From sequence record LR694611: a stretch of DNA of 64,000 nucleotides; one strand, 5' to 3'. Below the pieces are notes generated by a model. It was not told the origin of the DNA, ran no database searches, and saw only the letters and a list, made by a program, of their open reading frames with translations. Numbering within the stretch: position 1 is the stretch's first letter; each line of letters begins with the position of its first letter. The position numbers and the translations under genes were made by a program. Shown piece by piece: positions 39,405 to 55,707 of the stretch. The stretch comes from Escherichia phage rV5_ev158.

Positions 39405-39506
39405 ATGGAATACACAATGAGAACATTGTCTGAAGTTTTAGTGGTGATCCTGATGATCATTACTTCCATAGCGGCTGTTGCCGGAATACTCACGGGTGGA
39501 ACATGA
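39405..39506 (+). CDS. small hydrophobic peptide (33 aa)
   Basis: MEYTMRTLSEVLVVILMIITSIAAVAGILTGGT; stop overlaps ATG of next ORF; below ORF-track cutoff. Confidence 0.35.
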   Translation: MEYTMRTLSEVLVVILMIITSIAAVAGILTGGT

Positions 39507-39715
39507 TCAACACACATGCATCTGAAGAGACATCCGAAGGAGTGACCATATGTCCCTTGGATGAGCCAGTTAAAGAGGAAAACTTAGATTCTGAGGACTC
39601 TTCATCTTCGTCCCAGACAGATCCTGAGGCTGATGACCTGACGTGGGAGGACATCGTAGATATCTGGTTCTCTATTATGCCTGAGCACGAAGAGTTCAGA
39701 GGTGGTAGACTATGA
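39503..39715 (+). CDS. small very acidic protein
   Basis: Asp/Glu/Ser-rich ORF coupled to upstream peptide. Confidence 0.4.
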   Translation: MINTHASEETSEGVTICPLDEPVKEENLDSEDSSSSSQTDPEADDLTWEDIVDIWFSIMPEHEEFRGGRL

Positions 39716-39836
39716 AGCACCGAGCCCACACAGGTTCCTCATGCTAAAGCATGGCCTGAAGAGGCAAACGTGTATAATTCTTGTGCATTGGAACGTATAA
39801 AACCCTGTTCACACTCTCATTCCCAGAGGAGATTTT

Positions 39837-40052
39837 ATGAAGATAGAGATATTTGGTGGAGCTGACAACACTCGTGGCCTGATTTACCTTGAATTCGATG
39901 AATCATACCTGCCAGAGGTGTTAAATATAGACTCTGTTGCTGAGGCTTTGGGAGTAAACCCTAAAGAACTCCACTCTTGTGCTGAGATCGATGGTTGGGA
40001 AGAGACCATGAACATTGATTTCAGTGAAGTAGAGGATGAACCGCTAGACTGA
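39837..40052 (+). CDS. small acidic protein (MKIEIFGG N-terminus); last plus-strand gene
   Basis: GAGGAG RBS; acidic tail EVEDEPLD. Confidence 0.45.
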   Translation: MKIEIFGGADNTRGLIYLEFDESYLPEVLNIDSVAEALGVNPKELHSCAEIDGWEETMNIDFSEVEDEPLD

Positions 40053-40748
40053 CACACAATCAGCTGCCCGGCTAAAGTGCTGGAAGCGCACCTATAACAC
40101 ATCTTTCAACTAAATTTCCTACCACCACAATCACTTACCTACCACACATGACTGTTTGCTTGTTTAGTGAGCAGTCATGCCTTGACATTCTTGCCTATCC
40201 TGATAAAATTAAGTTCTTCTCTTTTCTTTTACCGAGTAATTCGGGTTTTCTGTTCTCTTCGGTTTGAAGGGGTATGGAGATACACCTGAGTGAACAGGGT
40301 GAACAACCGAACCATTGGCTATGGCATTAGCATGGCGAAGCGGACGGGTGACGAAAGAGGGGCCGGAGGACACCAGTCACTGCCATATGATATATGGGTG
40401 ATAACCTGAAGAGTCTGAATAAGTGTTTAAGTACCAGTCAGAGGAAAAGGTGAATGGTAGCCGAAGGGGGATGGGGGGTTTCTTGTATCTTTAATTTGTA
40501 TATTATGTATACACTTGTAAACCAATCTCATCTGAATCTGTTTACCACACAAAGCGGATAGAGACAAATATCACCTATTAAACTTGAATTATTTATAGAA
40601 AATACCACAACACCACTTAAGTCTTTGATTTTACACACAAATCCTACAGATATTCAACCTCCATATTTAACATACTTGTAACATATTCCATACTCTACCT
40701 GTCTGATCAATTTCCCCAACTACATTCTCATATTTTCCCTGTCTGTAC

Positions 40749-40946
40749 TACCCCTGCCCCGCCGGGAGTCCCGTCATATCTGGCTTTCCAGCAAATATCA
40801 CACCCACAAATATCATTGCCTGAAGAGGGTTTCATCCCATAATACCTGCCTTACCTGAAGAGCGCTTCATACACCACGTAAATTTTTTAATTGACCTCCC
40901 CCTGCCCCGCCGGAGAGGTTGGCTTTTCCCACACAGACCTGAAGAG
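40749..40946. repeat. imperfect direct repeats, each starting CCCCTGCCCCGCCGG and ending CCTGAAGAG
   Basis: 9-mer CCTGAAGAG occurs five times between ~39755 and ~40946. Confidence 0.6.
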
Positions 40947-41522
40947 TCAGCCAGAAATATCTGAACAGGCCCAATTCTACCACGATTTTGACCTGACCTA
41001 CAGGGAGGCCCGAAGGGTCTAGCTTTCAGCTAGAGTCCTTGCAGGACCTACAGGAGCGCTGCCAGGCGGACGGAATGGGAATACTTCTCATTCTTATAAC
41101 AATTCTCAAATATCGAGACAGTGAGAGAAATTAATAGGCCAGGCCGTTCACACAGTGGCACAACATTTGCAACCTATTTTGGGTGGATGAATGAGAATAC
41201 CTATCATTGTGAGAACTGTTATCATTACGGGCAATTTAACATAATACCCATTATGCGCACCACCGGCGATACATACAGGGATTGATAACATGGGTTACTG
41301 TTTACGCACATAACAATTATATTTCTTACTATTTGTGTGGGATATAGTTAGCAGCCGATAGATTAGATATTAACCTGCAGACTTCTGACCGTCCAGACGT
41401 CTAAACGCCCACACACCAAGGATTATACATACACTCCTGAATGTAAACAGGGCCGCAAAAATGCTACCATACAAGCTTGTAAATTTTTCATGCAGCACTT
41501 GACAAAGAGGAGAAAAACTTGT

Positions 41523-41648
41523 CTGACATAATGTGACCTAACTGACACAACATGACACTTTTACACACCTATTAGTTTACACACTGGATTGTTTACATTC
41601 CTGATTGTTCACATGCTAACCATTTACATGATTGACTGTTTACACACC
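41523..41648. repeat. iteron-like short repeats: four TGACA-type at ~10 bp spacing, then five TGTTTACA-type at ~16 bp spacing
   Basis: read directly from sequence in ORF-free region. Confidence 0.5.
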
Positions 41649-41656
41649 GATAATCA

Positions 41657-41950
41657 GCCATGCCATTCGTTTGCATGAAAACAATTAACAAGATAACAAT
41701 CGACAAGTTAATAATCTTTCGCTGGCTATGCCAGGTGACTAGGTCACCCCTTCGGGCGTTCCTATGACATAATATAAAAGCAGGGCAACTATTAGCAGAT
41801 CTATAGTTGCCTTGCTTGTTATGTCATGATTAACTAAATACAAGGCAACTATGATCTGATTAATAGTTTGCAGACAAACTATCACGGGGGTGATGGTTAC
41901 TGCTTTTATATTATGTCGCGACTCCGTCGCGCCATGCCATTCGTTTGCAT
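41657..41950. repeat. composite dyad-symmetry element: 20-bp direct repeats flanking an 18-bp perfect inverted repeat and internal palindromes
   Basis: GCCATGCCATTCGTTTGCAT at ~41657 and ~41931; GACATAATATAAAAGCAG (41766-41783) inverted at 41901-41918; internal hairpins GGCAACTAT/ATAGTTGCC, GGTGAC-TAG-GTCACC, CGCGAC-TCC-GTCGCG. Confidence 0.6.
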
Positions 41951-42558
41951 AGTTGCCTTATTGTTACGAATAAAACAATTGCATTGTTAATGATTTCTTA
42001 TCTTTCTCTTAGTCATCTAATGATTCCAGTCAGTATAGTAATGTACAGTAAACATTAGACGACTAAAGATTTCTCTGTTTATGATAACTCATCTTGATAA
42101 TTTCGGACTGTTTACGAAAAATGTTGACACCTGAGCTGATTTATGTTATGCAGTTTACACGAATAATTATTTTATGCAGGTATTGACTATTCCGTTATTC
42201 TGTGGTTGGAATAAATACTTTGCAGGCTATAGAATGGCGTGCGTACGTGAATTCTGAGATCTGGCGGCTATAGTTATACTCGATTTTTCGCGTAGAACAC
42301 GCTTTCGATGCTGTGTAAGTGTATGACTTATAAAGATTTTTAGTTGTTGACAAGATATTGGAGATGTGCATCAGGTTAAAATTTGTGCAATAGCGGCATT
42401 ACGTGCACTTTTGGGAGAGAAAACGGGTAAAAATGGACTTGCTACCACACAATGAAAAATTATGCAATAGTTATTTTCCATGTATATTTGTACAGTATGT
42501 GGGATTGATGGCTAGTCAATTATTCCACTTGCCAGGTAGGGCCGTTTATGGTAGGAGA

Positions 42559-42590
42559 AGAGCAGACAAAAAGAAAGGGGCCTAAGCCCC
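42559..42590 (-). terminator. intrinsic terminator for the minus-strand block (GGGGC-TTAG-GCCCC then T-run on minus strand)
   Basis: hairpin ~20 nt beyond the stop of gene 42611..43030. Confidence 0.55.
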
Positions 42591-42610
42591 TTGATAATTC
42601 AGTTAAAAAA

Positions 42611-43030
42611 TTATAATGATTCGTATATTTCAAAAATCCGATTTGCCAGGTCGTTACGGTAGCGGAATTTTTCCTCACGTTTGATCATAAGATCTTTATA
42701 GCCGTACTCTTTAAGCACTTCATTAACTTTATGGCGGCATACTTTCATATTATCCTGCGCGTCACCAATAAATCTGTTGCTATGGTGCATGGCTTTAATT
42801 TCTTCTTCCAGGACCAGGGCAACTATGCGGACCGGATCAAGCTGATAGGCGGTAACATCCATGCGGCATTGTAAACGGCTTTTTACGTCTGCCACCGGAT
42901 ATACTGCAACCTCTTCCCCGTCAACATTGATAATAATTAGTTTACCATCGATTTCGAATCCTTTCGCCGCCGGACCGTGACAAAAAGCGTTATCAAAGCT
43001 ATATGCCGGATTATTAGATTTAATGTTCAT
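42611..43030 (-). CDS. hypothetical protein
   Basis: minus-strand ORF; TTGACA-N17-TATATT promoter-like sequence upstream on minus strand. Confidence 0.5.
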   Translation of the reverse strand: MNIKSNNPAYSFDNAFCHGPAAKGFEIDGKLIIINVDGEEVAVYPVADVKSRLQCRMDVTAYQLDPVRIVALVLEEEIKAMHHSNRFIGDAQDNMKVCRHKVNEVLKEYGYKDLMIKREEKFRYRNDLANRIFEIYESL

Positions 43031-43174
43031 GGTGTTTTTACCTCTTAGTTAATTTTCTTACAACTTCCCTTCAAAAAAGAATATAGCAAAACTGCCGATC
43101 CCTGTCAACCAGGGATAGCATAATTTTTATGTGATCAAGGGGCTTTATTGCCCCTGACCATGTAACTTGTTGTA

Positions 43175-43438
43175 TTATTTGTTGCTCATCCAGTTTTCCC
43201 AAGCTGCCTGATAATCTGCCTCACTACGGCGGATCTCTTCTTGCTCTTCAAGGCGGATCTCTTCTTCCAGGTACCCCAAGATGTCAGCCTTTTTAGTCTG
43301 GCGTAGCATCCAGTCATCTTTTTTGCGAGTGAAGATCTTATAAGCTTTCTCGCAAACCTCTTTTTTGCTACCTTTCTGGACTTCAAGAACACGATAAGCC
43401 ATATATTGAACTAATTTGAGCTGATCAAGACGTTTCAT
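43175..43438 (-). CDS. hypothetical protein
   Basis: minus-strand ORF with upstream GC hairpin. Confidence 0.45.
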   Translation of the reverse strand: MKRLDQLKLVQYMAYRVLEVQKGSKKEVCEKAYKIFTRKKDDWMLRQTKKADILGYLEEEIRLEEQEEIRRSEADYQAAWENWMSNK

Positions 43439-43498
43439 GATGTTTACCTCTTTGTGCGGTTCTGATTAGTGGGCCTTTTGGCCCGTGTCATTATCTTA

Positions 43499-43771
43499 TT
43501 ACTTATGGCGGCAGAATTCAAGCGTTTTTAATTGATAATCTTCCTCAGCCTGGAGTACAACCGCCTCGATCATTTCGTTGGCATTGTTGAAGCCATACCC
43601 TTTAGCGAACTCGTCCGCACCACCTTCGTGATCATGTTCTGCGTTCATCGCTTCCACAAAATGGAATTCCAAATTGTTGAGGTAGGGGCTTGATGTGCCG
43701 TCTTCTTTTTCGATGAGATCCCAAATAGCATTAAAACGTGATTCGACTTCTTGATTAATCCAGCTTGACAT
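43499..43771 (-). CDS. hypothetical acidic protein
   Basis: minus-strand ORF. Confidence 0.45.
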   Translation of the reverse strand: MSSWINQEVESRFNAIWDLIEKEDGTSSPYLNNLEFHFVEAMNAEHDHEGGADEFAKGYGFNNANEMIEAVVLQAEEDYQLKTLEFCRHK

Positions 43772-43989
43772 AGTGTTTTCCTCTCTTCTGGTTGTTGTGT
43801 GGGCACCTTTGCCCCTTCAAGATAAATGTTACCCCACCCCCTGGCAGATGTCAACGGTTTTTATAGTTCTTATATGACAGGCAGGCCTGGTGATTGTCTC
43901 CCCCTGTTCCCAAGTGCCGCCCGTTTAATAAGAATAGCAAAAGGGGCCGAACAAGTCAACCCCAAAATCAGTACCAAAACACTTTTTAT

Positions 43990-44301
43990 TTATACGGTCC
44001 GGTCATTGGCCTTTGTCCAGGACCTGGCGATCCGTTTCCCAGTCACCTGGAACGGAGACTGCATTGTGTGTAATGAATCCAGCGTAAGGGAGGACCGTTT
44101 ACGGCGTATCTTCAGGATCGCCAATGTATTGTCCATCTCACGGCCAGGTCCTGGGCGGTATGGTGTGCCTCCAGCGTTAAGGTTGATGATCTCATGTATT
44201 GAGATCCGGCGTTGTTTTGCTTCCGCATCTTTGAAGATAGCCAGTGGAGGCGCTATGCGTTGCCGATACCAATCTAAAACGGTTGGCGTAATAGCGATCA
44301 T
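43990..44301 (-). CDS. hypothetical protein
   Basis: minus-strand ORF. Confidence 0.45.
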   Translation of the reverse strand: MIAITPTVLDWYRQRIAPPLAIFKDAEAKQRRISIHEIINLNAGGTPYRPGPGREMDNTLAILKIRRKRSSLTLDSLHTMQSPFQVTGKRIARSWTKANDRTV

Positions 44302-44489
44302 ATTTTACCCCCTATGTAGTCCGGTCGGTTTTTCTCTGTCATGCGTTTTAGCAATTCTTGAATAATCCCTATTGCGGTTAATGTCTCATCTTCACGCTTT
44401 GAGTCAACATACCCGGGATCGTTTATAACTTTTGTCTGATTATGATATCTCAATACCGCCAACACTTTTACAGCTTCATCAGTGGTCAT
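44298..44489 (-). CDS. hypothetical protein
   Basis: ATGA-type coupling to 43990..44301. Confidence 0.4.
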   Translation of the reverse strand: MTTDEAVKVLAVLRYHNQTKVINDPGYVDSKREDETLTAIGIIQELLKRMTEKNRPDYIGGKI

Positions 44490-44497
44490 TATCGCAC

Positions 44498-44632
44498 CTA
44501 AAACAATGAGTTAATATATAACACCAGATCGCTGACCACTAGAACAACACTGATCAGCACATACCTAACCATAAGGGTAAAGAGCGCCAATATTGACACC
44601 ACAATCCCCAAGGTGGTGATTATCTTTTTCAT
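44498..44632 (-). CDS. small hydrophobic membrane peptide (44 aa)
   Basis: MKKIITTLGIVVSILALFTLMVRYVLISVVLVV...; fills the gap between flanking genes; below ORF-track cutoff. Confidence 0.35.
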   Translation of the reverse strand: MKKIITTLGIVVSILALFTLMVRYVLISVVLVVSDLVLYINSLF

Positions 44633-44634
44633 GG

Positions 44635-44919
44635 TTAACGGTTCACGTAAGCTTTACCGTTTACCGTCATCGGCAAATCTTCCAGGTCTGGATCTTCCTT
44701 AAGGTCACGAGCAAGCTCACCGCACCGGATACCCTCGAATCCGTAGTACTCTGTTGTACCGTCATTAAAAGTTTTAGTGGCAAGGCATAAGCGATAAGTA
44801 ACCCCGATTCGATTGACGGCATGAATATCCGTTAGATTAACCTCTTTTGCCAGCTCATTAGCCATTGCAGGCGCATTAAGTCCAACAACCAGGGTAACCG
44901 CTGCGATCATCTTTTTCAT
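44635..44919 (-). CDS. secreted/periplasmic small protein (signal peptide)
   Basis: MKKMIAAVTLVVGLNAPAMA then ANE: signal-peptide-like N-terminus. Confidence 0.5.
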   Translation of the reverse strand: MKKMIAAVTLVVGLNAPAMANELAKEVNLTDIHAVNRIGVTYRLCLATKTFNDGTTEYYGFEGIRCGELARDLKEDPDLEDLPMTVNGKAYVNR

Positions 44920-45010
44920 TGTGTCTATCCTCTTTCTGCTACGTTTAAGGCGGCGGTAACCGCCTGTTTATGCTTTGTTGGTTAATTTTCAGGTATCTGT
45001 ATAAATTAAA

Positions 45011-45226
45011 CTATGCTGTACGCTCAACTATAACAACGGTTTGGGGGATCTCCCCTTCCACCACTAGTAAGGCCTTTTTCTGCGTGATAGATATCTTTAC
45101 CCGTTGCAGCGTGGCGGTGAAGTCTTTCATTTCGTCACGCGGTGTTTTAGTGCAGTACCAGATCTCAGGCTTGCCGATCTGTAAGTTGCGTAAAAATTCT
45201 GTTTTGCCTGTTTTGTTAGTGATCAT
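45011..45226 (-). CDS. hypothetical protein
   Basis: GGTGAGG RBS upstream on minus strand. Confidence 0.4.
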   Translation of the reverse strand: MITNKTGKTEFLRNLQIGKPEIWYCTKTPRDEMKDFTATLQRVKISITQKKALLVVEGEIPQTVVIVERTA

Positions 45227-45410
45227 TTGTCAACCTCACCCGATACCGTTGGAAGACAAGATCACATTAGCCATGGTTGCAATCAGGCCAATACCCAGGG
45301 CAATAACCGGGATCACAGCATCAATTAATTTTTGTTTCATGGTGTTTATTCTCTTCTGTTAGTAACCTTATTCATAGGGCCGCTGCCACGGCCCCAGGGT
45401 AAGGCGGCTA

Positions 45411-45656
45411 TTAGTGTTTCATTCCAACCATAGCGGCGCGGATCGCCGTAGTGCTGTACTTGAAGCCGTCCGGGGTCTTATCTTGTCCGGTTAGCTCCAG
45501 AAAAAGCATCATATCCCGCGCCGCATCATTACGATTAGCATTAGCGTTAATAAAGCCTTGGGCCAACCGGTACAATGACTCATCGTTATTAATCCAAAGG
45601 CTTACATTCCAATGAGTTTTGTTTTTGTAACCGTTATAACCTTTATTGCTTTTCAT
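45411..45656 (-). CDS. hypothetical protein
   Basis: minus-strand ORF. Confidence 0.45.
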   Translation of the reverse strand: MKSNKGYNGYKNKTHWNVSLWINNDESLYRLAQGFINANANRNDAARDMMLFLELTGQDKTPDGFKYSTTAIRAAMVGMKH

Positions 45657-45747
45657 GGTGTTTACCTCTTCTTTGTTCCGGGTGGCGGATCATTCTACCA
45701 CCTTATGTATTATGCTTTGTTAGATGGTTGTTTGTTGTCAAACTATT

Positions 45748-45927
45748 TTAACGATAATCATCGTACGCTTTATTAACCTGGCGAATATAACATTCAAAAG
45801 CTAGATCAATAGATTCATATTCACGGATATACTCACCATAGGAAACCACATACATTTCTATAGCTTCCTCATATGCGAGGAGAATAGAATCTAAGCCTAC
45901 GATCTCGGTCTTTGCAATAATAGCCAT
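45748..45927 (-). CDS. hypothetical protein
   Basis: start set at internal ATG (MAIIAK) with AAGAGGA RBS; in frame with ORF 45748..45969. Confidence 0.4.
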   Translation of the reverse strand: MAIIAKTEIVGLDSILLAYEEAIEMYVVSYGEYIREYESIDLAFECYIRQVNKAYDDYR

Positions 45928-46002
45928 GATTTTTATCCTCTTTGTGGTTGGTGGGGCTTGTTGCTCCATTTTATTTATATATTACAGTTTTATATGGTCA
46001 TG

Positions 46003-46236
46003 TCAACTATTTTCAAAAAATTTTTCTGCTGTGATATTCTTTCCGGTAGGGTTCGCTACTTTCAAAATTCTATCATGCACCGGACGCCCGAAAGAATAAG
46101 ATCCGTATACAGTAAACCAATAATCACCGTCAGGCTGTACTATTACCGCCGCATAGGGTACGCCTTTTTCGTTTTTGCTGACAAAATAGATCACATTGCC
46201 ATTAATAGCCTCAGTGCGTTTAATTTGTTCCATCAT
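46003..46236 (-). CDS. hypothetical protein
   Basis: minus-strand ORF with 5' GC hairpin upstream. Confidence 0.45.
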   Translation of the reverse strand: MMEQIKRTEAINGNVIYFVSKNEKGVPYAAVIVQPDGDYWFTVYGSYSFGRPVHDRILKVANPTGKNITAEKFFENS

Positions 46237-46291
46237 GATGATTTACCTCTCTTTATTTTCATAATTGGGGGCCTTTTCGGCCCCGCCAGGT

Positions 46292-46576
46292 TTATTTATT
46301 GATAGCGTGCAGCGGGAAAGCTACGCCAGGTTGATAAATAACCTTTACAACCTCATCAGGACAAAAGAAGTTGCAGAACTCACCGCAATAGGCCTCATCC
46401 TCTTTCAACTCTTCATCAACATACTCAAAAAAGTAGTCGATGCTTGGATAATCCTGGCCGGGATTATAGTCAACCATCGTTAATAATAACTCTTGATCAT
46501 TCCGTAGGATGTGCATACCCGCTTTTAAGTATTTTGCTTCCATTTCTACTACATCGCCAGCGGTAACAATAGCCAT
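46292..46576 (-). CDS. hypothetical acidic protein
   Basis: minus-strand ORF; TTGCAT-N17-ATAATA promoter-like sequence upstream. Confidence 0.45.
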   Translation of the reverse strand: MAIVTAGDVVEMEAKYLKAGMHILRNDQELLLTMVDYNPGQDYPSIDYFFEYVDEELKEDEAYCGEFCNFFCPDEVVKVIYQPGVAFPLHAINK

Positions 46577-46778
46577 GATTTTAACTCCTATCTATCTGGT
46601 CAACGATTGGGGGCCTCCCCCTCGACAACTCTTATTATCCATATTGTCGGGAATGATGCAAGTACTTCTTTAAAAATTTTTTAAGCGCCCCGTATGCCGT
46701 TGTAACGCCAAAATAATAAAGGCCATGCAACCGCATGGCCTTTATGTGATTATATTGCTGCAGGCCCTGCTAGGGGCC

Positions 46779-47129
46779 TTATTTTGCATTCTTGCCTGTA
46801 TTGCCGCCACGGTACCAGCGTTTGCGGTGAAAATGGTAATAATCACCCTCGGCATTAAACATCAGATGATTTTCAATAACCAGCTTACGAAGGTGGGCCG
46901 GATCTTGTTCCATTCTTGCCAGATTCCGGCGGCTGTTACGTAAGCGTATAAATTCCATATTCAGGCCGTTGATTGCAGCATGGATGTTAAAGTAACCACC
47001 TTTGAGACGTTCACGCATGGCGTTAAGCTCAACACAATATACAGATTTCTCACAAATCAAGGTATTAGCTAGGGCGCGGACCTGGGCAAGGGGGTTAAGC
47101 TCATTAAAGTAATATAGTTTGACTTTCAT
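46779..47129 (-). CDS. hypothetical protein
   Basis: minus-strand ORF followed by hairpin terminator (~46721-46742). Confidence 0.5.
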   Translation of the reverse strand: MKVKLYYFNELNPLAQVRALANTLICEKSVYCVELNAMRERLKGGYFNIHAAINGLNMEFIRLRNSRRNLARMEQDPAHLRKLVIENHLMFNAEGDYYHFHRKRWYRGGNTGKNAK

Positions 47130-47146
47130 AAAATCGCCTGCTGAAA

Positions 47147-47446
47147 TTAGTTTGAGAAAACATCGTTCACAATAGCGATCACAATGCCGCCCACCTTGTC
47201 ACGGTCAACAATGCACAAATCACCATAGATCATGTGGTAGTCTGGATGATCTTTCACAGAATAGTCAATAAGTGTTTTCTTGTCATCCAGCTTCGTAACT
47301 TCCATTCTCATAACGATATGAGAATCATCAAAGGCATTATTCCGAAAAGTCATAGCCTGACCGCCAGGGCACCCGGTGATCTCCACTTCCACACCATCTA
47401 CGATCTGACCATCAAAGAAATAAAGATTATTAGCCTGGATAAACAT
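47147..47446 (-). CDS. hypothetical protein
   Basis: start set at internal ATG (MFIQANN) with AGGAG 8 nt upstream; track GTG start sits directly on the RBS. Confidence 0.45.
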   Translation of the reverse strand: MFIQANNLYFFDGQIVDGVEVEITGCPGGQAMTFRNNAFDDSHIVMRMEVTKLDDKKTLIDYSVKDHPDYHMIYGDLCIVDRDKVGGIVIAIVNDVFSN

Positions 47447-47493
47447 GTCTATCACTCCTTGTTAACTGCGTGGTATTTTAACAGGGTTTAAAT

Positions 47494-47536
47494 TTACTTT
47501 ATTGATGGCCCTGGAGTCAAGGCCATCTAAAAATAA
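47494..47536 (-). promoter_or_regulatory. conserved 43-bp intergenic element, copy 1: hairpin GATGGCC...GGCCATC with TTGACT in the loop
   Basis: near-identical copies at 51231-51273 and 51852-51896. Confidence 0.5.
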
Positions 47537-47539
47537 ATT

Positions 47540-47740
47540 TTACAGGCCTACAATCTCTTTGATTCGTTTAACCGCTGCCTCAGCGCCTTGGGGGTAAAAA
47601 TTATGGTAACCAATCACGCGAGTGATACTAATCGCCGTTTGATGATCTTCATAGTCGCCCTTGAAGATTTCTTGACCGTCAATCAGCACGGCAATTTTTT
47701 CTTCTTTTTTGAAGTTAATAACGCGGATATTGTTGCTCAT
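47540..47740 (-). CDS. hypothetical protein
   Basis: minus-strand ORF. Confidence 0.45.
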   Translation of the reverse strand: MSNNIRVINFKKEEKIAVLIDGQEIFKGDYEDHQTAISITRVIGYHNFYPQGAEAAVKRIKEIVGL

Positions 47741-47879
47741 TTTGTTTCTCCTTTCTGGTTTTTGTGGTGGTGGGGATTAGCTCCCCGTTGATTGTTATTA
47801 TCCACATTCCGGACCGGATTGCAACACCACGGAAGAAAAATTTTTTAAAAAGATAGGCCCCCATGATCGGGGGCCGTTC

Positions 47880-47999
47880 CTAGTTACTTACAGCGATAAA
47901 GTACATCCCTACGCCTAGCAATATTTCAAGGGCGATAATCTCAAGCCATACCATAACGCGGCGCACCTTATCGGTGCATGGCTTATCCTTGGTTGTCAT
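47880..47999 (-). CDS. small hydrophobic membrane peptide (39 aa)
   Basis: MTTKDKPCTDKVRRVMVWLEIIALEILLGVGMYFIAVSN; GGAGGAAA RBS; followed by hairpin plus T-run; competes with overlapping track ORFs. Confidence 0.3.
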   Translation of the reverse strand: MTTKDKPCTDKVRRVMVWLEIIALEILLGVGMYFIAVSN

Positions 48000-48218
48000 C
48001 GTCTCCCCCTTTCCTCCGGGTAGTAGTGACGCGATCTACAATGGCCCCCAGGAGTCCTATCACGACACACACCACAAGAAAAATTATCTCCGCTGTTGTT
48101 CGATCCATTGTTATAAAATTCCTCAAGATCAGGCCTGAAAATAAAGCGTTCGTTATTGAATCCGTCACGCCAGGCGGCTGGCTTCAAATCTTCACTAAAG
48201 GGATTAATTAACGTGGCA

Positions 48219-48590
48219 TTATTTAAACGGTTGGCCCACATATTTTCTATTCCTCTCAAATAGGCGATCCGCCTCAGTTAAACATATCTCATGGGCTTGA
48301 TCTCTGGTTTTAGCCTCATCAAAAACCTGTTGTGCCAGGCTGCAGCGTAGGGAGACTGGAAGATCACTATAATAGGCGTTGACAAACGTTTGAGCGTCGT
48401 ACAGGTCTGAAAATACTTTACCCTTTCTATTATTCCCCTTGTCAACAATTGCAAGGATAACCAATACAATAGTTGCAACCACCCCCAGGAAAATAGATAT
48501 AATAAACCATAAAAAGGCGGATCTGCCCATCTTGCCAGCGATCCAGGCGTTAAACAAGGAAACCAATACAGCCAAAATAATAAATTCCAT
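48219..48590 (-). CDS. membrane protein (two hydrophobic helices)
   Basis: start set at ATG (MEFIILAVLVSLF) with AAGAGG RBS; in frame with ORF 48219..48623. Confidence 0.5.
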   Translation of the reverse strand: MEFIILAVLVSLFNAWIAGKMGRSAFLWFIISIFLGVVATIVLVILAIVDKGNNRKGKVFSDLYDAQTFVNAYYSDLPVSLRCSLAQQVFDEAKTRDQAHEICLTEADRLFERNRKYVGQPFK

Positions 48591-48654
48591 TCTATGTACC
48601 TCTTTTGCAGTTCTGTTTAACAATAAGGCGGCAAATATGCCGCCTGTTACCTGA

Positions 48655-49035
48655 TTAAAAATTATCGCCGTAAATCTTTCCGCTTTCTGCCCATACCACC
48701 ACGCGGGGCATACTATCCCACACGTCTTGTTTTAGATTGAGCGCGTGCAATTCTTCGGTGGTGCCCATACCAGGCACGGGCTGATTGTATACTGCAAAAC
48801 GACCACCTGCATAATCGTAGGCCAGAGTTAAATCACACTGGATCATCTTTTTGATCATGGCGTTGAGCATAGCGTTAGCCGCATACTGGTCACGTTTTAA
48901 AGGCAACTCTTTGATTAGTTTGCGATAGTTTTCAATGTGATCGCACACTGTTTCACGTGGAAGATCTTTCATGTCCTCGCGAAAGGTAACCAGGTTAAAC
49001 ATAACGGTGTCAATAGCTTTAGTAGTGTTTTTCAT
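48655..49035 (-). CDS. hypothetical protein
   Basis: minus-strand ORF. Confidence 0.5.
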   Translation of the reverse strand: MKNTTKAIDTVMFNLVTFREDMKDLPRETVCDHIENYRKLIKELPLKRDQYAANAMLNAMIKKMIQCDLTLAYDYAGGRFAVYNQPVPGMGTTEELHALNLKQDVWDSMPRVVVWAESGKIYGDNF

Positions 49036-49124
49036 AATGTTTACCTCTTTGTTTTGTGTGGGGGCAAACGTCTTGCCCCTTGAGTTTTAATATAGCAGGT
49101 TTTTAGGTTATTGCAACACTTTAT

Positions 49125-49748
49125 TTATGAAAAAGTCATCTCGCCATATTCATCCACATCAAACCGCCAATCATTGGCCTCGATAAGGCCGATCAGGTTT
49201 TCGGTGGTGAATTGTTCAAGATAGGCTTGCTCCAGGTCTACGTAAACCTTGCGGGATAACTCCCGTACCGTCTCGGTGATCAGCTCTTCCAGCTCTTCAA
49301 CTTTATCCTCTTGCTTGGTGGTCAGGTCTAGCCAATTGGTATCGATGCACCCGCCTATTGTGTTTTCGTGATGATAATGGCTAAACGGGATACGTTCAAC
49401 GCTGGCTGACAGTTCGCCATCATGCATTGTGCCGAACAAGTGTCTAATTAAGCGGAATTTTGTAAGCGCTTTAACCTTACGCAAGAATTTTTCTAAGTTT
49501 ACATTTTCAGCACTAATTGATGCGCCGTCGCCTTGACACCAAAAGCCGGACCAATGTACTTCGGTATCTTCAAGGCCGTACTCTGGAAAAACATATTCTT
49601 TATAGTATTCAATTACACTTTCTGCGAAAAAATCCTCTCCGCTGTGTTCTTCTCTTTCGCGGACCATTTCAATAGCCTTTTCTTTTTGTTCGTCGGTCAG
49701 CACGTCGAAAGATAAATTGCAACCTGTGGTAATGTTAACGGTGGTCAT
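49125..49748 (-). CDS. hypothetical acidic protein
   Basis: consensus promoter and 5' hairpin upstream; conserved-looking WSGFWCQGDGASI segment, family not recognised. Confidence 0.55.
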   Translation of the reverse strand: MTTVNITTGCNLSFDVLTDEQKEKAIEMVREREEHSGEDFFAESVIEYYKEYVFPEYGLEDTEVHWSGFWCQGDGASISAENVNLEKFLRKVKALTKFRLIRHLFGTMHDGELSASVERIPFSHYHHENTIGGCIDTNWLDLTTKQEDKVEELEELITETVRELSRKVYVDLEQAYLEQFTTENLIGLIEANDWRFDVDEYGEMTFS

Positions 49749-49805
49749 GATATTTTCTCCTGTTTTCTTTGTTAGTGGCGGGAAGTTTTCCCGCCTGTGT
49801 TTTTA

Positions 49806-49833
49806 ATTATACTTATTGAGATTTACTTGTCAA
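49806..49833 (-). promoter_or_regulatory. sigma70-type promoter TTGACA-N16-TATAAT on minus strand
   Basis: read as reverse complement upstream of gene 49125..49748. Confidence 0.6.
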
Positions 49834-50083
49834 CACTATTTTTTAAATTATTGTGGCGCAAAATGTTTAAAATCTCCTCAACGTCATCAACACGGCGGCA
49901 ATTTTTAAACGCTACCAATTGCCCCATGATTTTAATCACTGGGCGGCCTTGCCAGTGCCCCTGGAGAAAGCGCGCCTTGACTTTATCGGTGGAACTATCA
50001 CGCCACCAAATGGCCTTGTTGTTGCAGTAGTAAAAATTATTCAGGACAACATCAACTTTATCAAAATTTTTTAATTTACGCAT
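49823..50083 (-). CDS. hypothetical protein
   Basis: minus-strand ORF. Confidence 0.45.
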   Translation of the reverse strand: MRKLKNFDKVDVVLNNFYYCNNKAIWWRDSSTDKVKARFLQGHWQGRPVIKIMGQLVAFKNCRRVDDVEEILNILRHNNLKNSVDK

Positions 50084-50324
50084 GGCGTTTACTCCTTTCT
50101 CTCTTTGATGTGGTTAGTATAGCTAACCTGTTTAAGATGTCAAGCTTTAAATAAAATCACTGTCAATGATATTTTTAACGCCATAAAACGGCCCTAAGCG
50201 ATGTTTTCAGGTTAAAGGGGGGCGATTGCATAGGTGGGGCCTTTTTGGCGCTTACAGGGCCAACCAGGGGCGCTATTCGTAGGATAGAAATAAAAAGCCC
50301 CGCACAATGGCGGGGCGTTGGTTG

Positions 50325-50522
50325 TTATTTGTCTTTATGGCGGTATCGTTCTGCCTGTCGTTCACGTTCCAAAAGTAGGCCAGGCAATTTACGATCATAA
50401 TGATTTCGCCAGATCTTTCCAAATCTTTTTGGCTTATTCAGTTTATTGTTACGCTGGCGTCGTTCCGGCAGCTCTTCGGAATCATGAGATCGCTTTACAA
50501 TCTTCTCAAAATTAATCTTCAT
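50325..50522 (-). CDS. small basic protein
   Basis: start set at ATG (MKINFEK) with AGGGGGG RBS; in frame with ORF 50325..50546; hairpin terminator after stop. Confidence 0.4.
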   Translation of the reverse strand: MKINFEKIVKRSHDSEELPERRQRNNKLNKPKRFGKIWRNHYDRKLPGLLLERERQAERYRHKDK

Positions 50523-50883
50523 ATATTCCCCCCTTGCTAACTTCAATATTGGCCTGAATAGCCCGGATACGCCGTTTTATAACCTCCTGATCCTTGCAAT
50601 CATATCCCCAAAAGTCTACGATTTTTGCGCCTCCAGCCTTTAGGCGGTATAGTGTTTCTTGCATCTTGTAGGCCGGGATCGGTCGCGGTGTTACCTGGTC
50701 GCCCTTCTCATTCTTGTACTTGATAATGTAGTCTTCATTGTCGTTGAATATCCAAAATGGGTATTCTGTGAGCGCGTTGCTCTCTTTTTCGTTTTTAGAT
50801 TGGATCTTGTTTACAATTAAAGCCGTAGCAATAGCGCCAATAATAAAACTTGCCCCACTGATCATGTTACTTTCTCCTTTCAT
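50512..50883 (-). CDS. hypothetical protein with N-terminal membrane anchor
   Basis: ISGASFIIGAIATALIV hydrophobic segment. Confidence 0.45.
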   Translation of the reverse strand: MKGESNMISGASFIIGAIATALIVNKIQSKNEKESNALTEYPFWIFNDNEDYIIKYKNEKGDQVTPRPIPAYKMQETLYRLKAGGAKIVDFWGYDCKDQEVIKRRIRAIQANIEVSKGGIYED

Positions 50884-50941
50884 TGTATTGATAAACTATC
50901 TTTATAGATGGCCCTGCTACCAGGACCACCGAAAAAACAGT

Positions 50942-51187
50942 TTATTTGACGATACCGACAAAACAGATCCCGCCTTCCCCTATATAGGCAATATCGGTAA
51001 TTTTATAATTTGTCAAGATCCGCGTGTTCAGCTCATTAATAAAATCTGTCATCGCGTTGGTGTAGTTGTCTTCCGTGTCTAAGGCATAATCCCAGGTGTA
51101 AACCTTTTTACGTCCGAAGCCTTTTACCATGATACGGGCGCTTTTGGTGTTGGTAGGGGCATAATATTTGGTGATTAGTGCTGCCAT
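50942..51187 (-). CDS. hypothetical protein
   Basis: ~44 nt downstream of conserved element copy 2. Confidence 0.45.
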   Translation of the reverse strand: MAALITKYYAPTNTKSARIMVKGFGRKKVYTWDYALDTEDNYTNAMTDFINELNTRILTNYKITDIAYIGEGGICFVGIVK

Positions 51188-51230
51188 GGTTTTAACTCCT
51201 ATGCATTAGTTCAGTGTTAACAGTATAAAG

Positions 51231-51273
51231 TTTACTTTATTGATGGCCCTGGAGTCAAGGCCATCTAAAAATA
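51231..51273 (-). promoter_or_regulatory. conserved 43-bp intergenic element, copy 2
   Basis: TTTACTTTATTGATGGCCCTGGAGTCAAGGCCATCTAAAAATAA on plus strand. Confidence 0.5.
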
Positions 51274-51276
51274 ATC

Positions 51277-51618
51277 TTACTCGTTTTCTTCCAGCTCCGC
51301 AAGCTCTTCTTTTGCTTCTTCTAACTCTGTCTGTAATTCCTGGTATTCTTCATCGTCCTCAATATCCAGGCTGTCGATGTAGTCGCTAAATCCGCAGCGG
51401 TAAGCGATAGGATCTAGCTCCTTGAGGATACGCGACGGAAGAAAAGAAATGTTTCCGATCATGATTTCGCCGTAGATCTCGTCTAACCATTCATCATAGT
51501 TTTCGTCGTACTTGTCCTCGTCGATTTCAAAGGTATCGATCTTGTTCTCAAGGTCTGCGATCTGTTTTTTCAGTGCGGCAACCTGAATAGCTTTTTCTGC
51601 GGCGGTCATAGTAGTCAT
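51277..51618 (-). CDS. hypothetical acidic coiled-coil-like protein
   Basis: minus-strand ORF with 5' GC hairpin upstream. Confidence 0.5.
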   Translation of the reverse strand: MTTMTAAEKAIQVAALKKQIADLENKIDTFEIDEDKYDENYDEWLDEIYGEIMIGNISFLPSRILKELDPIAYRCGFSDYIDSLDIEDDEEYQELQTELEEAKEELAELEENE

Positions 51619-51851
51619 GGTGTTTTCTCCTTTTGTGTGTTCTGGGAAGTTTTCCCGTTTACGGGTTTAAGTATACCGATCTAAGTTAGCTTGTCAATTA
51701 AAAATTTAAGAAAAATTTTGCAAAACTGTTAGCGCTACTCATTAACATTTGCGCCAGGATGTAACCGACAACGCAGACGATAATAGTTACCTTTGTGTAT
51801 TGGCGTGTAGTGCCCATCTTAAAGCCCCCTTTTTCGCTTAACTGAGATTAG

Positions 51852-51896
51852 TTTACTTTATCGATGGCCCTGGAGTCAAGGCCATCTAAAAATAAA
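51852..51896 (-). promoter_or_regulatory. conserved 43-bp intergenic element, copy 3
   Basis: differs from copies 1 and 2 at a few positions only. Confidence 0.5.
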
Positions 51897-51897
51897 C

Positions 51898-52302
51898 TCA
51901 ATAAGTTTTTAGTACTTTCCCGTCCAACCTGTCTAGCTGGATCTCAATGGCTGCAGAAAACCTATTATAAACCACGTCGCCCATGGAATCCAACCAGTCT
52001 ATGACGTTATACACTTGCTCTTTGTTCTTGCAGGTCCGGATCCGTTTCATGATGTAAGCCGGATCAATATTGGTACTCTCGTTGGTGTTCCCCTGTACCT
52101 GGTTTGCCGTATTAGCCACATCTTTAATGGCCTTTACCACCACCTGGAAGGGCTTTAAGGTGCCTTTTGCGTTCATCTCACGCGCTTTTGCGGCGCGGTT
52201 GTTATAGGTTACACAACGGCGGCAAATGTTCACTAAGTGCATGTCAATAATTTTTTCATCGTTTGCCAGTTCGTTCATGATGCGGCGTACGTTCTTATTC
52301 AT
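51898..52302 (-). CDS. hypothetical protein
   Basis: TTGACA-N16/17-TAAACT promoter-like sequence and GGCGGGA...TCCCGCC hairpin upstream. Confidence 0.5.
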   Translation of the reverse strand: MNKNVRRIMNELANDEKIIDMHLVNICRRCVTYNNRAAKAREMNAKGTLKPFQVVVKAIKDVANTANQVQGNTNESTNIDPAYIMKRIRTCKNKEQVYNVIDWLDSMGDVVYNRFSAAIEIQLDRLDGKVLKTY

Positions 52303-52384
52303 GATCTTTTTCCTTTGTGCTGGCGGGAAACATTCCCGCCTTTTGTGTCTAGTTTACTTAAATTTTGCAGCGTGTCAATGATTT

Positions 52385-52783
52385 TTATTCGTGGGCGCAT
52401 GTCACAATGTGCTTTTTATAGCCCAGGTGGTCAGCAAGTGCCGACAAAAACTCTTCTTCGTAGATCCAGCCGTCGGCAGTGATCCCCATAGCATTTAATG
52501 CACTCTCAAGTGCTGCGTTAGCTTTATCGTAACCGTGACCGCTCGCCTTGCCGCCAGTATAACCGTACTTATTGTTCTTGTTGTCGTGAATCCAAAACAC
52601 GCAGTAGTGAGTGTTACCACTGGCGGCGGCATAATACCGGATCTCAGCTACTTCGTGCAAATTATTGTCATCATCCAGGCCCACCAGATTATAAGCCTTG
52701 TAAAATCCACGATCACGGCGGCAGTTCTTGACATCAGAAAAAGAAAAGTCCGCATTATCAAAATTAAAGGTAGTGGTTTTCAT
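52385..52783 (-). CDS. hypothetical protein
   Basis: minus-strand ORF. Confidence 0.5.
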   Translation of the reverse strand: MKTTTFNFDNADFSFSDVKNCRRDRGFYKAYNLVGLDDDNNLHEVAEIRYYAAASGNTHYCVFWIHDNKNNKYGYTGGKASGHGYDKANAALESALNAMGITADGWIYEEEFLSALADHLGYKKHIVTCAHE

Positions 52784-52846
52784 GATTTTATCCTCTTAGT
52801 GTCTTTTGCGATTTCAGTGTATTTTGTGTCAGACCATATGTCAACA

Positions 52847-53044
52847 TTATTTTTTATTAAACCAGTGGTTGATCTGACCTTTTGTCAGGGCGCAACGGTT
52901 AAGCTGTTGCAGGGTATAGCTATGACCGCGACGAAATTTATAAAGGCCTTGCCCGTTGTTGATGGTTACATCCACCCGGCAAATCACTTGATTGGTGACC
53001 ACCTGGCGAGTGTTGCGACGTACTTTAATTCCGTAGGCGTTCAT
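52847..53044 (-). CDS. hypothetical protein
   Basis: minus-strand ORF. Confidence 0.4.
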   Translation of the reverse strand: MNAYGIKVRRNTRQVVTNQVICRVDVTINNGQGLYKFRRGHSYTLQQLNRCALTKGQINHWFNKK

Positions 53045-53139
53045 GATTTTTTATCCTCTCTGTTAATTGGTGTGGTGTTGTTCACCTTGCGAGGATAAGA
53101 ATAACAAGAACTGTCCGAGCTGTCAACCATTAGTTAAAA

Positions 53140-53307
53140 TTATTTTTTTGGGTAGAATTCTCCAGCCGCCGCCCCTGCCAGGTTAACCATCATTTTTTCG
53201 TACTCTTCTTTATGTTCCAACGCTCCCGCCATAGCCTTTTCAACCAGGGCGATAGCCTCAGCGTCATTAATAGCTACATTTTCCAGGGGGATCATATTAC
53301 CTTCCAT
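53140..53307 (-). CDS. small protein (55 aa)
   Basis: MEGNMIPLENVAINDAEAIALVEKAMAGALEHKEEYEKMMVNLAGAAAGEFYPKK; RBS GAAGAGGAGG; below ORF-track cutoff. Confidence 0.4.
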   Translation of the reverse strand: MEGNMIPLENVAINDAEAIALVEKAMAGALEHKEEYEKMMVNLAGAAAGEFYPKK

Positions 53308-53519
53308 TTTTGTACCTCCTCTTCAATTGTTACCTATCCTATAGCATAGGCCCACCAGGTTTGCAAGCCTTCATTCTCTCCTACCTGGTCAGTTAGGCCC
53401 TGCCAGGCTGGCCCCGCCAGGTTGCAGCGGTCAGCGCATCAGGTTAGAATTTTTTTTTTTGAAAAGTGTTGACAGCGGCCCCGCCAGGTGGCAAAATATA
53501 CCTATCGAAAGGACGGCAG

Positions 53520-53700
53520 GCACCGGTGACGGGGGAGACAACCACCGGGGATGGGCGCTGCATGAAATGAGAACGATTATCATTATCGTCTAAAAATTTA
53601 TGCAAAAACTTCTTGCTTTCTTTGTCCTGTGTGTTACTATAATAACAAGCCGGGGCAGTAGGGGCCGGGAGACAATCACCGGGCCTGCCCGTTATTCTGC
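53520..53700. repeat. two ~60-bp direct repeat units, each with GC-rich core GGGAGACAAYCACCGGG and GAGAAYGATTATCATT
   Basis: read from ORF-free region. Confidence 0.5.
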
Positions 53701-53844
53701 AAACGAGAATGATTATCATTCAAAATTCTAAATGAGAACTCCTCGCATTTAATAAATTTAATTAGCACGCTAATTACCCTACGTAACAATTTCCTATAAA
53801 ATAGTATCCACTAAAATATTCCCATATAGAAATTTTAAAAATCC

Positions 53845-54020
53845 ATTTCTGAAAACGAAAAATCGATTTCGTCCCCAAAAATTTCAGGTCGAGAGCCGGA
53901 ACGATTTCCGGAAAATCCGATTCAGAAAACGAAAAACAGATCGAGTACTGAGAAATTTATCGAGAAAAATTTTCAGAAAATTCAATCTTTGAAACGAAAA
54001 ACAGATCGAGTACTTGGAAA
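53845..54020. repeat. three tandem AT-rich ~65-75 bp repeats; core GAAAACGAAAAACAGATCGAGTACT exact twice, degenerate once
   Basis: read from ORF-free region. Confidence 0.55.
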
Positions 54021-54324
54021 GCTGCGCCACAACTTCAAGGTAGTGGTTGGATTATTACTATAAAAGGTCAAGGGTAAGTGGGGGAAGTTCTAGTAGAAGG
54101 GTGTGAGCATGTGCGGGAAATCTGTAATGGTGGTCTGGAATATGGTGCAGACGATAGGATGAGTGGTTCATCTCGTCGTGCCTGCTCTGAAAAATCCATT
54201 TTAGTTTTCGATCCATTTTCTGATTTTCTAAGGATTTTAAAATATCCTGGTAGGTAAAATATCAAAAGGAGGAAATCCATTTTAGAAATCCTCCTGATCT
54301 CTGGCAACCTGATAACTTAAAATA

Positions 54325-54657
54325 TCAGGCTCCCAGTGTGTTCTTTCCTTTATACAACCGTAAGGGTATAGTTTTTGTAACAGTCCATCTCCCCAGCCCT
54401 TCCCAGTTCCAGTTGTAGGCATGGTACCCGGTTACGCATGCACTGCTGGAGTGATCATAGGCATAAGAGAACGCTATACGCACCAAATGAAACCAGTCTT
54501 TCCACGGTTGTGGTCCGTAAGCTTTTCTCCAACACCGACACAAGCTAAATGTCTCAAGAATAGGCAGGATAACAAATCCATACACCGCCACCAGAATAGC
54601 CAACGCAATGATTGTCAGGAATACATACCCTGCAGTTGAAACGATGATCTCTGTCAT
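54325..54657 (-). CDS. membrane protein
   Basis: VFLTIIALAILVAVYGFVILPIL hydrophobic segment. Confidence 0.5.
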   Translation of the reverse strand: MTEIIVSTAGYVFLTIIALAILVAVYGFVILPILETFSLCRCWRKAYGPQPWKDWFHLVRIAFSYAYDHSSSACVTGYHAYNWNWEGLGRWTVTKTIPLRLYKGKNTLGA

Positions 54658-55089: not shown

Positions 55090-55109
55090 ACTTTATCTCC
55101 TGCACTTTC

Positions 55110-55445: not shown

Positions 55446-55452
55446 ATCATAC

Positions 55453-55644: not shown

Positions 55645-55707
55645 AATACATCGCTCTCTGTTAGTTTATGCGTATATTATACACTGCAGTTTTCAGATGT
55701 CAACCTC

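Follow-up and report, generated by a model that had tools for sequence, protein, structure and literature searches.

Introduction

The subject of this work is a GC-rich repeat in the DNA of Escherichia phage rV5_ev158 (LR694611), which was analysed over a stretch of 64,000 nt, called the window below and numbered from its first letter. The repeat occurs in three units, A on the minus strand and B and C on the plus strand, each with a predicted promoter. Several described systems come close to such an arrangement. In Escherichia coli, protection from RNase E by 5'-terminal stem-loops is established; in cases such as the ompA 5' untranslated region (UTR), it requires the absence of an unpaired 5' tail, and the stabiliser hairpins need no particular loop sequence. 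The cis-acting antitermination RNAs of lambda (nut/boxB) and HK022 (putL and putR) are located just downstream of early promoters. Among phage replication origins, the primary origin of T7 has an AT-rich region behind tandem promoters, T4 oriF and oriG combine a promoter with a DNA-unwinding element, and the lambda origin contains iterons. To our knowledge, a conserved 5' RNA hairpin and Fur boxes are both absent from origins of these types.

The repeat resembles the 5' stabilising stem-loops in having a GC-rich stem, a helix that begins at the predicted +1 in most lineages and a place at the head of putative early transcripts. It differs from them in a 13-nt loop that is near-invariant across genera, which implies an additional sequence-specific role. 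With the nut and put sites it shares several copies per genome, a stem-loop with conserved unpaired nucleotides, and a position on the early-promoter strand and downstream of an early promoter, strand and promoters alike being predicted here. It has no sequence or Rfam similarity to them, forms a single hairpin in place of the two-hairpin fold of put, and in B and C heads no long operons; a terminator scan of the plus strand predicted no strong terminators downstream of B or C. Judged by these analogies, the element appears closest to a 5'-terminal stem-loop whose loop is sequence-specific, and combines mRNA-stabilising with nut/put-type features. rV5 also encodes an Srd-like protein (PMC3606486).

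The locus of units B and C is similar to the T7, T4 and lambda origins in that two tandem promoters lead into an AT-rich region with 3-6 direct iterons, and in that the module is conserved while its neighbours are not. The reading preferred here, to which we give about even chances, is that the motif belongs to a 5'-terminal RNA stem-loop of non-coding early transcripts, and that its ancestral copy leads into Fur-box-like operators and probable origin or control iterons. There would be three promoter-hairpin cassettes, A at 43959-43877 (minus), B at 53469-53561 (plus) and C at 53613-53690 (plus). As the hairpin lies immediately downstream of the promoters, the stem-loop would form at or very near the transcript 5' end, where pairing from +1 would create a stable, RNase-E-resistant terminus and the invariant loop could offer a sequence-specific contact to a phage or host factor. 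Unit C would head a non-coding early transcript running through the Fur-box-like operator array towards the iterons, and host Fur, or a phage protein of like specificity, bound downstream would decide whether transcription proceeds into them.

Collections for phage therapy and biocontrol often contain rV5-like phages and their relatives (Vequintavirinae, Phapecoctavirus). The one non-coding module conserved across these genera is now delimited with coordinates and comprises predicted tandem promoters, one or two candidate structured RNAs, Fur-like operators and iterons. If the RNA and origin reading is true, the module would supply origin and early-promoter parts for engineering these phages and new RNA families for Rfam, and a virulent phage might conceivably sense the iron status of its host through Fur.

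The Repeat and Its Copies

Whole-genome searches were made in the 138-kb genome of Escherichia phage rV5_ev168 (LR694610.1, Vequintavirus), which the window matches at 100% identity; a window coordinate equals the LR694610.1 coordinate minus 63948. The 23-nt motif GGCAGGCCYGGTGATTGTCTCCC is found exactly at 43880-43902 on the plus strand and, reverse-complemented, at 53667-53689 on the minus strand. An inverted-repeat finder lengthens the 43880/53667 pair to 29 nt with 90% complementarity. An earlier note, made from the letters alone, had held the motif to be no product of chance, and this is borne out both by 100 dinucleotide shuffles, which give zero expected matches to the 23-mer, and by the profile E-values (Table 1). 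Searching the genome with an nhmmer profile of 27 non-identical elements yields exactly three copies, every one within the window. The next match has E = 14, and the three copies stand more than nine orders of magnitude apart from the background.

The note had also counted the GC-rich unit at 53530-53560 as a copy and placed a looser one at 40361-40385. At the former, only the 14-nt core at 53533-53546 is common with the 23-mer; a search with this core, written GGGAGACAAYCACC, yields it as the third site. The 3' arm of this unit has diverged (GGGGATGGGCGCTGC), and the unit is nonetheless a significant member of the family by nhmmer, so that it stands as a diverged copy. The copy near 40361 does not hold: its best ungapped alignment to the 23-mer has 10 mismatches in 23 positions, which about 95 other sites in the window equal or better, and nhmmer finds no match at 40361-40385 even at E <= 100. 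The adjoining segment 40357-40371 (AGGGGCCGGAGGACA) matches the 5' arm of unit C at 13 of 15 positions, which places it in the top 0.4% of 1586 windows and is not significant after multiple testing.

Read in the sense of the promoters, the motif is always GGGAGACAAYCACCRGGCCUGCC, and the core of the loop is intact in A, B and C. The repeat is real, non-random and conserved across phage genera. Searching the genome and its relatives for it gave the three genome copies and the conservation across genera described below.

Table 1. Coordinates in the window of the repeat units, predicted promoters, boxes and iterons.
Feature	Position	Strand	Description and source
Predicted promoter, unit A	43931..43959	-	TTGACT, 17-nt spacer, TATTCT, TG before -10; promoter and terminator scans
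Predicted hairpin A	43877..43924	-	ACGGGCGGCACUUGGGAACAGGGGGAGACAAUCACCAGGCCUGCCUGU; motif at 43880-43902 forms loop end and 3' arm
Second predicted promoter, locus A	43826..43854	-	TTGACA, 17-nt spacer, TAACAT; promoter scan, conserved in A-locus alignment
Predicted promoter, unit B	53469..53497	+	TTGACA, 17-nt spacer, CAAAAT, TG, upstream A/T tract; promoter scan
Predicted hairpin B	53513..53561	+	Diverged paralogue; core GGGAGACAACCACC at 53533-53546
Predicted promoter, unit C	53613..53640	+	TTGCTT, 16-nt spacer, TACTAT; read from sequence
Predicted hairpin C	53653..53690	+	GGGCAGUAGGGGCCGGGAGACAAUCACCGGGCCUGCCC; motif at 53667-53689; copy with orthologues in other genera
Near-consensus Fur box	53569..53587		GATAATGATAATCGTTCTC on minus strand, 17/19 to E. 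coli consensus GATAATGATAATCATTATC
Fur-box-like palindrome	53704..53723		CGAGAATGATTATCA, 12/14 to 7-1-7 Fur motif TGATAATnATTATCA; 7-1-7 scan
AT-rich iteron region	53825..54020	+	57-nt repeat family D2, core GAAAACGAAAAACAGATCGAGTAC
nhmmer match A	43926-43865		E = 9e-11 (whole genome); 2e-10 in other profile search
nhmmer match B	53512-53572		E = 9e-9 (whole genome); 2e-8 in other profile search
nhmmer match C	53642-53708		E = 2e-18 (whole genome); 6e-18 in other profile search

Predicted Hairpin Structure Downstream of the Predicted Promoters

In all three copies, the motif forms the end of the apical loop (GGAGACAAWCACC) and the 3' arm of a potential GC-rich hairpin just downstream of a promoter-like site, and each copy stands in the sense orientation relative to its predicted sigma70-type promoter. 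The first paired base is the seventh nucleotide after the -10 hexamer, that is, the predicted +1, in 11 lineages (phiTE, ukendt, SSE121, Kashira, L017, L020, BIS47, EC152, rV5 A, L006 and SSBI34). Every related genus has an equivalent of the unit C promoter at a conserved position (TTGCAA, TTGATC or TTGACC, a 17-nt spacer, and TATATT, TATTCT or TATTAT). The folds of the rV5 copies have energies of -18.1 kcal/mol in A (z = -2.2; antisense z = -0.9), -21.7 kcal/mol in B (z = -1.4; antisense z = -1.2) and -27.4 kcal/mol in C (z = -2.6; antisense z = -0.2).

The 5' arm differs by clade and stays complementary to the 3' arm, as in AUAGCGGG:CCCGCUAU, GGGCAG:CUGCCC, AUGGCA:UGUCAU and AUGGCG:CGUCAU. 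A near-invariant loop with variable complementary arms is the opposite of the pattern expected for a dimeric DNA-binding site. The outer helix is 79% paired in 29 orthologues, with one pair that swaps AU and GC (13 and 7 sequences); its covariation is 0.18 compared to 0.115 for shuffled alignments, none of the 500 shuffles reaching as high. The A-type helix, compared in eight sequences, consists of 15 bp and a 2-nt bulge and is 89% paired vs 21-59% in slid structures. All five of its variable pairs change by G-C<->G-U, A-U<->G-U, C-G<->U-G or U-G<->U-A, and the predicted bulge takes in both hypervariable positions (CC, GG or UG). Since changes of the wobble type keep pairing on the sense strand only, and since the distance to the -10 hexamer is fixed, these patterns favour an RNA made from the predicted promoters. 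For a motif conserved at this length, the earlier note had suggested a recognition site or a small RNA module. This interpretation is supported by the fixed place and orientation behind promoters, by the hairpin with varying, complementary stems of which the motif is the loop and 3' arm, and by conservation across phage genera with differing flanking genes; the orientation to promoters, the hairpin, the Fur-box-like operator and the depth of conservation go beyond what had been suggested.

Several observations weigh against a transcribed 5' stem-loop. The promoters and +1 positions are predictions; that of unit C, with 8 of 12 consensus matches, falls just under the scan threshold, and in rV5 the hairpins of B and C do not start at the predicted +1 but 5-10 nt beyond it (about 10 nt in B). 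Covariation is modest overall. Sliding a structure by +1 or +3 yields comparable covariation at only 42-50% paired cells, the register of the inner helix shifts between clades, and no pair in the eight A-type sequences has changed on both sides. RNAalifold, applied to the 29-sequence alignment, recovered only the palindromic box and no consensus hairpin, because indels in the 5' arm misalign it; named structures were therefore used for the pair counts. Across 36 elements, the mean folding energy is not different between the sense (-16.25 kcal/mol) and antisense (-16.08 kcal/mol) strands, 22 of the 36 favouring sense. For the conserved 3' arm and the AUUCU after it, the constraint may instead lie in the DNA, where they would belong to an operator hexamer array. 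As to the downstream part of the reading, the origin role of the iterons is argued from likeness to transcription-dependent phage origins. The hairpin structure is accordingly supported but not proven.

Some of these points would suit a different explanation, which we regard as rather unlikely. The core and 3' arm could act as DNA, either as the site of a replication, packaging or transcription protein or as a single-stranded origin hairpin on which a primosome or helicase is loaded, the adjacency to promoters being incidental to a transcription-activated origin. The equal average energies of the two strands and the missing consensus hairpin are in agreement with this, as are the conservation of the loop and 3' arm, stronger in primary sequence than in pairing, and the position beside operator-like palindromes and iterons. 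However, the conserved 13-nt part is asymmetric and flanked by variable complementary arms, unlike the sites of dimeric proteins, and neither a -10 distance kept to the nucleotide in 11 lineages nor stem changes of the G-U wobble type, paired on the sense strand only, would be expected of it. Copy A, moreover, has ordinary early genes around it and neither iterons nor boxes close by.

An RNA-level alternative, also unlikely, is a promoter-proximal attenuator. The hairpin and the following YUAUUCU (AAUAUAUUUU in one lineage) would act as a weak intrinsic terminator releasing an RNA of about 50-60 nt that serves as a trans-acting small RNA or a primer, and read-through would occur only upon alternative pairing or the action of a factor. 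Most orthologues do have a U-rich segment after the stem, which is AAUAUAUUUU in the contigs L018, L026 and L030, and the 3' arm overlaps a possible alternative helix, YYAUUCUS:SAGAAUGR, that is 76% paired. Yet this helix shows no two-sided change and is lost in the same three contigs. The terminator scan flags none of the hairpins A-C on either strand, their apical loops measure 9-19 nt, and the U tract is interrupted; the tails after hairpins A, B and C are GUUAUUCUG, UCAUAUAAG and AUGAAAUGA, those of A and B not being U-rich.

Comparisons with known RNAs and host DNA were negative. Rfam 15 gave no match in the window at the gathering score, none to the element at E <= 5 within 39500-54500 and none at E <= 1 in seven orthologous loci; blastn against 5,426 E. 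coli genomes found no match to the element. Several other candidates were rejected. An antisense target of the loop was set aside, as no other genome site is complementary to GGAGACAAUCACC beyond chance. Kissing with the GGUGRAUCGCC segment of RNA-1, a second RNA candidate described below, was set aside, as the pairing does not covary when read from the sequences. The four G runs needed for a G-quadruplex are, by the same kind of reading, peculiar to rV5 unit C and not conserved. The alternative helix named above, between the 3' arm and the box, can pair; it does not covary and is lost in one lineage.

Conservation in Related Phages

A blastn search with 53380-53830 returned 250 phage records. 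Outside Vequintavirus, only the equivalent of ~53665-53756 aligns, which takes in the loop and 3' arm and the palindrome behind them. The identity is 78-88% in Certrevirus (phiTE, CR3), Seunavirus (SSE121, EC152), Mydovirus (BIS47), Serratia and Klebsiella phages and an Aeromonas phage, and ~72% over the same block in Phapecoctavirus (ukendt). Copy C is the orthologue of a promoter-hairpin-operator block present in Vequintavirinae, Stephanstirmvirinae and a few other phages of 115-153 kb. The gapped pattern GAGACAANCACC-N24-30-AATGATTNTCATT was found in IMG/VR and the JGI metagenomes only in phage contigs of 137-153 kb or in short fragments. Scanning with the box alone adds phages of 115-123 kb together with unrelated contigs that have ordinary Fur-type boxes.

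The conserved order is the -35, a 17-nt spacer, the -10, six nucleotides, the hairpin with its loop, the 3' arm ..CCUGCCYGYYAU, UCUGNAAAY and the palindrome GAGAATGATTMTCATTC. The count in rV5, phiTE and ukendt is 26 nt from the end of the loop motif to the start of GAGAAT, which fits the N24-30 scans. All relatives have the element within a 0.9-1.2 kb non-coding gap. A conserved neighbouring gene was considered as a clue to function and rejected because the flanks differ by genus (unknown function, HNH endonuclease, NADAR). A connection with pseudo-ToxI was likewise dropped: the phiTE orthologue does lie in a repeat-rich non-coding gap, and the published pseudo-ToxI escape locus of that phage is elsewhere, at 106.7 kb (PMC3475682).

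The module of promoter, hairpin, Fur-box-like operator and iterons, shared by an entire group of large phages of enterobacteria, is undescribed. A search of the literature on transcriptomes, origins and Fur boxes in these phages found nothing relevant, and the element is not described in the searchable literature. The genome papers on rV5 (PMC3606486) and CB7 (PMC7344957) list promoters and terminators and do not describe it.

Fur-Box-Like Operators, Iterons and the Candidate Origin

Units B and C lie in 53300-54320, the second long gap of the window without credible genes. A search with the Fur consensus finds the box after unit B with 2 mismatches, where 0.04 matches are expected by chance. 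The palindrome after unit C falls in invariant columns of the orthologue alignment, and its positions 53705-53723, read from the sequence, agree with the Fur consensus at 14 of 19. These are the two best 7-1-7 Fur-like boxes (12/14 each) in the 133 kb of the genome scanned, record positions 50001-63948 being left out. The likeness to Fur boxes extends to the relatives, which have 2-4 such boxes in a row. In contrast to Fur boxes, those of the phage stand downstream of the promoter (at about +55 to +75) and not over it, and they belong to the genome of a virulent phage. The preferred variant of the box, TGAGAATnATTCTCA, may belong to a phage protein instead of Fur. Four weaker boxes, with 2 mismatches each and forming two pairs 18 nt apart, are located at 41076-41224 inside a 2.5-kb non-coding block described in the last section.

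Downstream of the palindrome, GAAAA-rich spacers and A5T6 palindromes precede iterons, which are direct repeats of the same orientation beside an AT-rich segment, as in iteron origins. Their core, (C)GATCGAGA(A/C)C (also written CGATCGAGA(A/C)C), is present in 3-6 copies of one orientation between +140 and +450 in five lineages, namely Vequintavirus, Certrevirus, Seunavirus, Mydovirus and an unclassified Serratia phage, the RTCGAG copies in relatives being counted in L002 and L010-L015. The iterons are conserved though the surrounding genes are not. The iteron region is a candidate origin or packaging site, and the gap 53300-54320, the only large non-coding region kept across these phages, is most probably a replication-origin or control region. 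Skew analysis in the rV5 genome paper could not place the origin (PMC3606486).

A bolder version of the preferred reading, which we think improbable, would make the hairpin the 5' domain of an undescribed non-coding RNA family of Vequintavirinae-like phages that activates or primes replication at the iteron origin, host Fur gating its entry there. The origin would then be both iron-responsive and transcription-dependent.

A sequence at 54250-54300, TGGTAGGTAAAATATC, is similar to the late-promoter motif of rV5 as reported (TggTAaAAtA; PMC3606486) and is followed by an AGGAGGA..TCCTCCT hairpin that ends the non-coding region. Motifs of the AAATATCA type are again present in 40540-40960 and, in the orthologous regions, at their distal end.

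Paralogous Copies and Promoter Cassettes

Unit C is the ancestral copy, and A and B are its paralogues. The A and C types are linked by Salmonella phage SSBI34, in which an A-type hairpin stands next to a box. Small early genes of the minus strand occupy 42611-53563, and unit A is situated among them; its second predicted promoter lies between the hairpin and the first downstream gene (43499..43771, minus). At 43963-43943, a short GC stem carries the -35 hexamer of unit A in its loop and a T run comes after the stem, which gives a PeSL-like terminator/promoter composite. Relatives diverge upstream of ~43942, just upstream of the -10 hexamer, and this places a recombination junction inside the promoter.

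Further PeSL-like composites are found between minus-strand early genes at 47491-47539, 50894-50942, 51229-51277 and 51850-51898 (family D1). In these four copies, which are 65-96% identical, a GC stem GATGGCC..GGCCATC with TTGACT in its loop is followed by the -10-like TAAACT, and the unit A promoter (43963-43931) has the same layout. The variable early-gene region, the upstream divergence and the PeSL-like -35 point to the spread of unit A by promoter-cassette recombination, a process described for T4-type phages (PMC4122927).

Like the PeSL cassettes of T4-type phages (PMC2839356, PMC4122927), the units are repeated cassettes of a sigma70-like early promoter and a GC stem-loop, associated with small early ORFs (open reading frames) and with recombination junctions. 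The promoters were predicted by scan upstream of A and B and are conserved in position in the orthologues of C. The PeSL stem-loop, however, is a terminator joined to the promoter and is dispersed in many copies, whereas the rV5 hairpin lies downstream of the -10, inside the predicted transcript, has a loop conserved across genera and occurs three times in 138 kb. An identification of the element as a PeSL is ruled out by the hairpin position and the copy number.

The same composites raise the question of whether copies A and B are functionless by-products of PeSL-type shuffling, in which the promoter alone matters and the hairpin has hitch-hiked. The D1 copies and the unit A promoter show that such composites exist in the rV5 early regions, and the divergence immediately upstream of the unit A -10, the degenerate 3' arm of B and the position of B, where other genera have a different RNA, would all fit. 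We consider this very unlikely, as the A hairpin is kept across Vequintavirus with pairing-preserving changes only, B and C occur together in at least 113 genomes, the loop core has survived in every copy, and the deep conservation of unit C would be left unexplained.

The different RNA of other genera is RNA-1, a second conserved structured RNA candidate, which would start from a tandem promoter upstream of the hairpin unit. It is found in Certrevirus, Seunavirus, Mydovirus, Phapecoctavirus and Serratia phages, the phiTE copy being located at L002 2356-2462 and others in contigs L005, L009-L015, L019, L021, L024, L027, L031, L032, L036, L041, L042, L045-L047 and L049-L051. A 31-nt block, CGCCACCCCACGGCGWAAAGGCGGGGCTAAC, is identical in five lineages. 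Of the 16 pairs in the consensus fold, one is GC in 10 and AU in 9 sequences; this clean covariation is evidence that structured RNAs are encoded at the locus. RNA-1 has no Rfam match (E <= 1) and is absent from the rV5 genome, where unit B takes its place; unit B thus replaced it in Vequintavirus. The predicted promoter of unit B fits AAAA-N3-TGTTGAC, an early-promoter consensus reported for Certrevirus (PMC7344957).

The GC-rich motif GGCCCNGCCAGGT(T/G)GCA recurs at 53349-53490, upstream of unit B and in its promoter spacer, and also at 53165-53185. The related CTGCCAGGGGG is located in the spacer of the second locus A promoter (43835-43850). Both may be sites of a regulator overlapping early promoters.

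Open Reading Frames over the Motif

The earlier note had described the ORFs covering the motif as spurious and sharing the peptide TGRPGDCLP. The peptide is indeed common to both, and trivially so, since the DNA repeat is read in frame in each. The minus-strand ORF 53444..53719, which overlies hairpin units B and C, is ORF198 of the original rV5 annotation (DQ832317), and a 39-aa 'Phage protein' remnant of it is annotated in rV5_ev168. With both ORFs present, a peptide in common and GenBank entries for one of them, the repeat might be taken for coding sequence conserved as protein. This is scarcely credible: L007 and L023 have an interrupted ORF198 and L018, L026 and L030 have none, the C-terminus of the ORF moves with the length of a poly-T run, and no ORF198-like ORF exists at the orthologous elements of other genera. 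The plus-strand ORF 43826..44365 is antisense to three annotated genes. The pattern of conservation matches the units of promoter, hairpin and box and not codons. ORF198 is probably a spurious gene call and is to be removed from annotations as such.

Other Non-Coding Features

The rV5 paper (PMC3606486) gives the label 'non-coding' to the block 40053-42611, a 2.5-kb stretch free of ORFs. At its start is a strong predicted plus-strand promoter at 40182-40209 (TTGACA, 16-nt spacer, TAAAAT, TG). Its part 40150-40520 is 97-100% identical in all 118 Vequintavirus records, above the neighbouring early genes, and has no match outside the genus. Repeats in the block include a 16-nt periodic array of the TGTTTACA type at 41560-41644, three copies of ACCTGAAGAG, two each of CCCCTGCCCCGCCGG and GCCATGCCATTCGTTTGCAT, and an 18-nt perfect inverted repeat at 41766/41900.

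At the other end of the window, four tandem palindromic units of 21-22 bp (GTGTCCGTAnnACGGACAG) occupy 874-959. They look like an operator array and are located 70-150 bp beyond the 3' end of a putative transcriptional regulator gene (1032-1382, minus).

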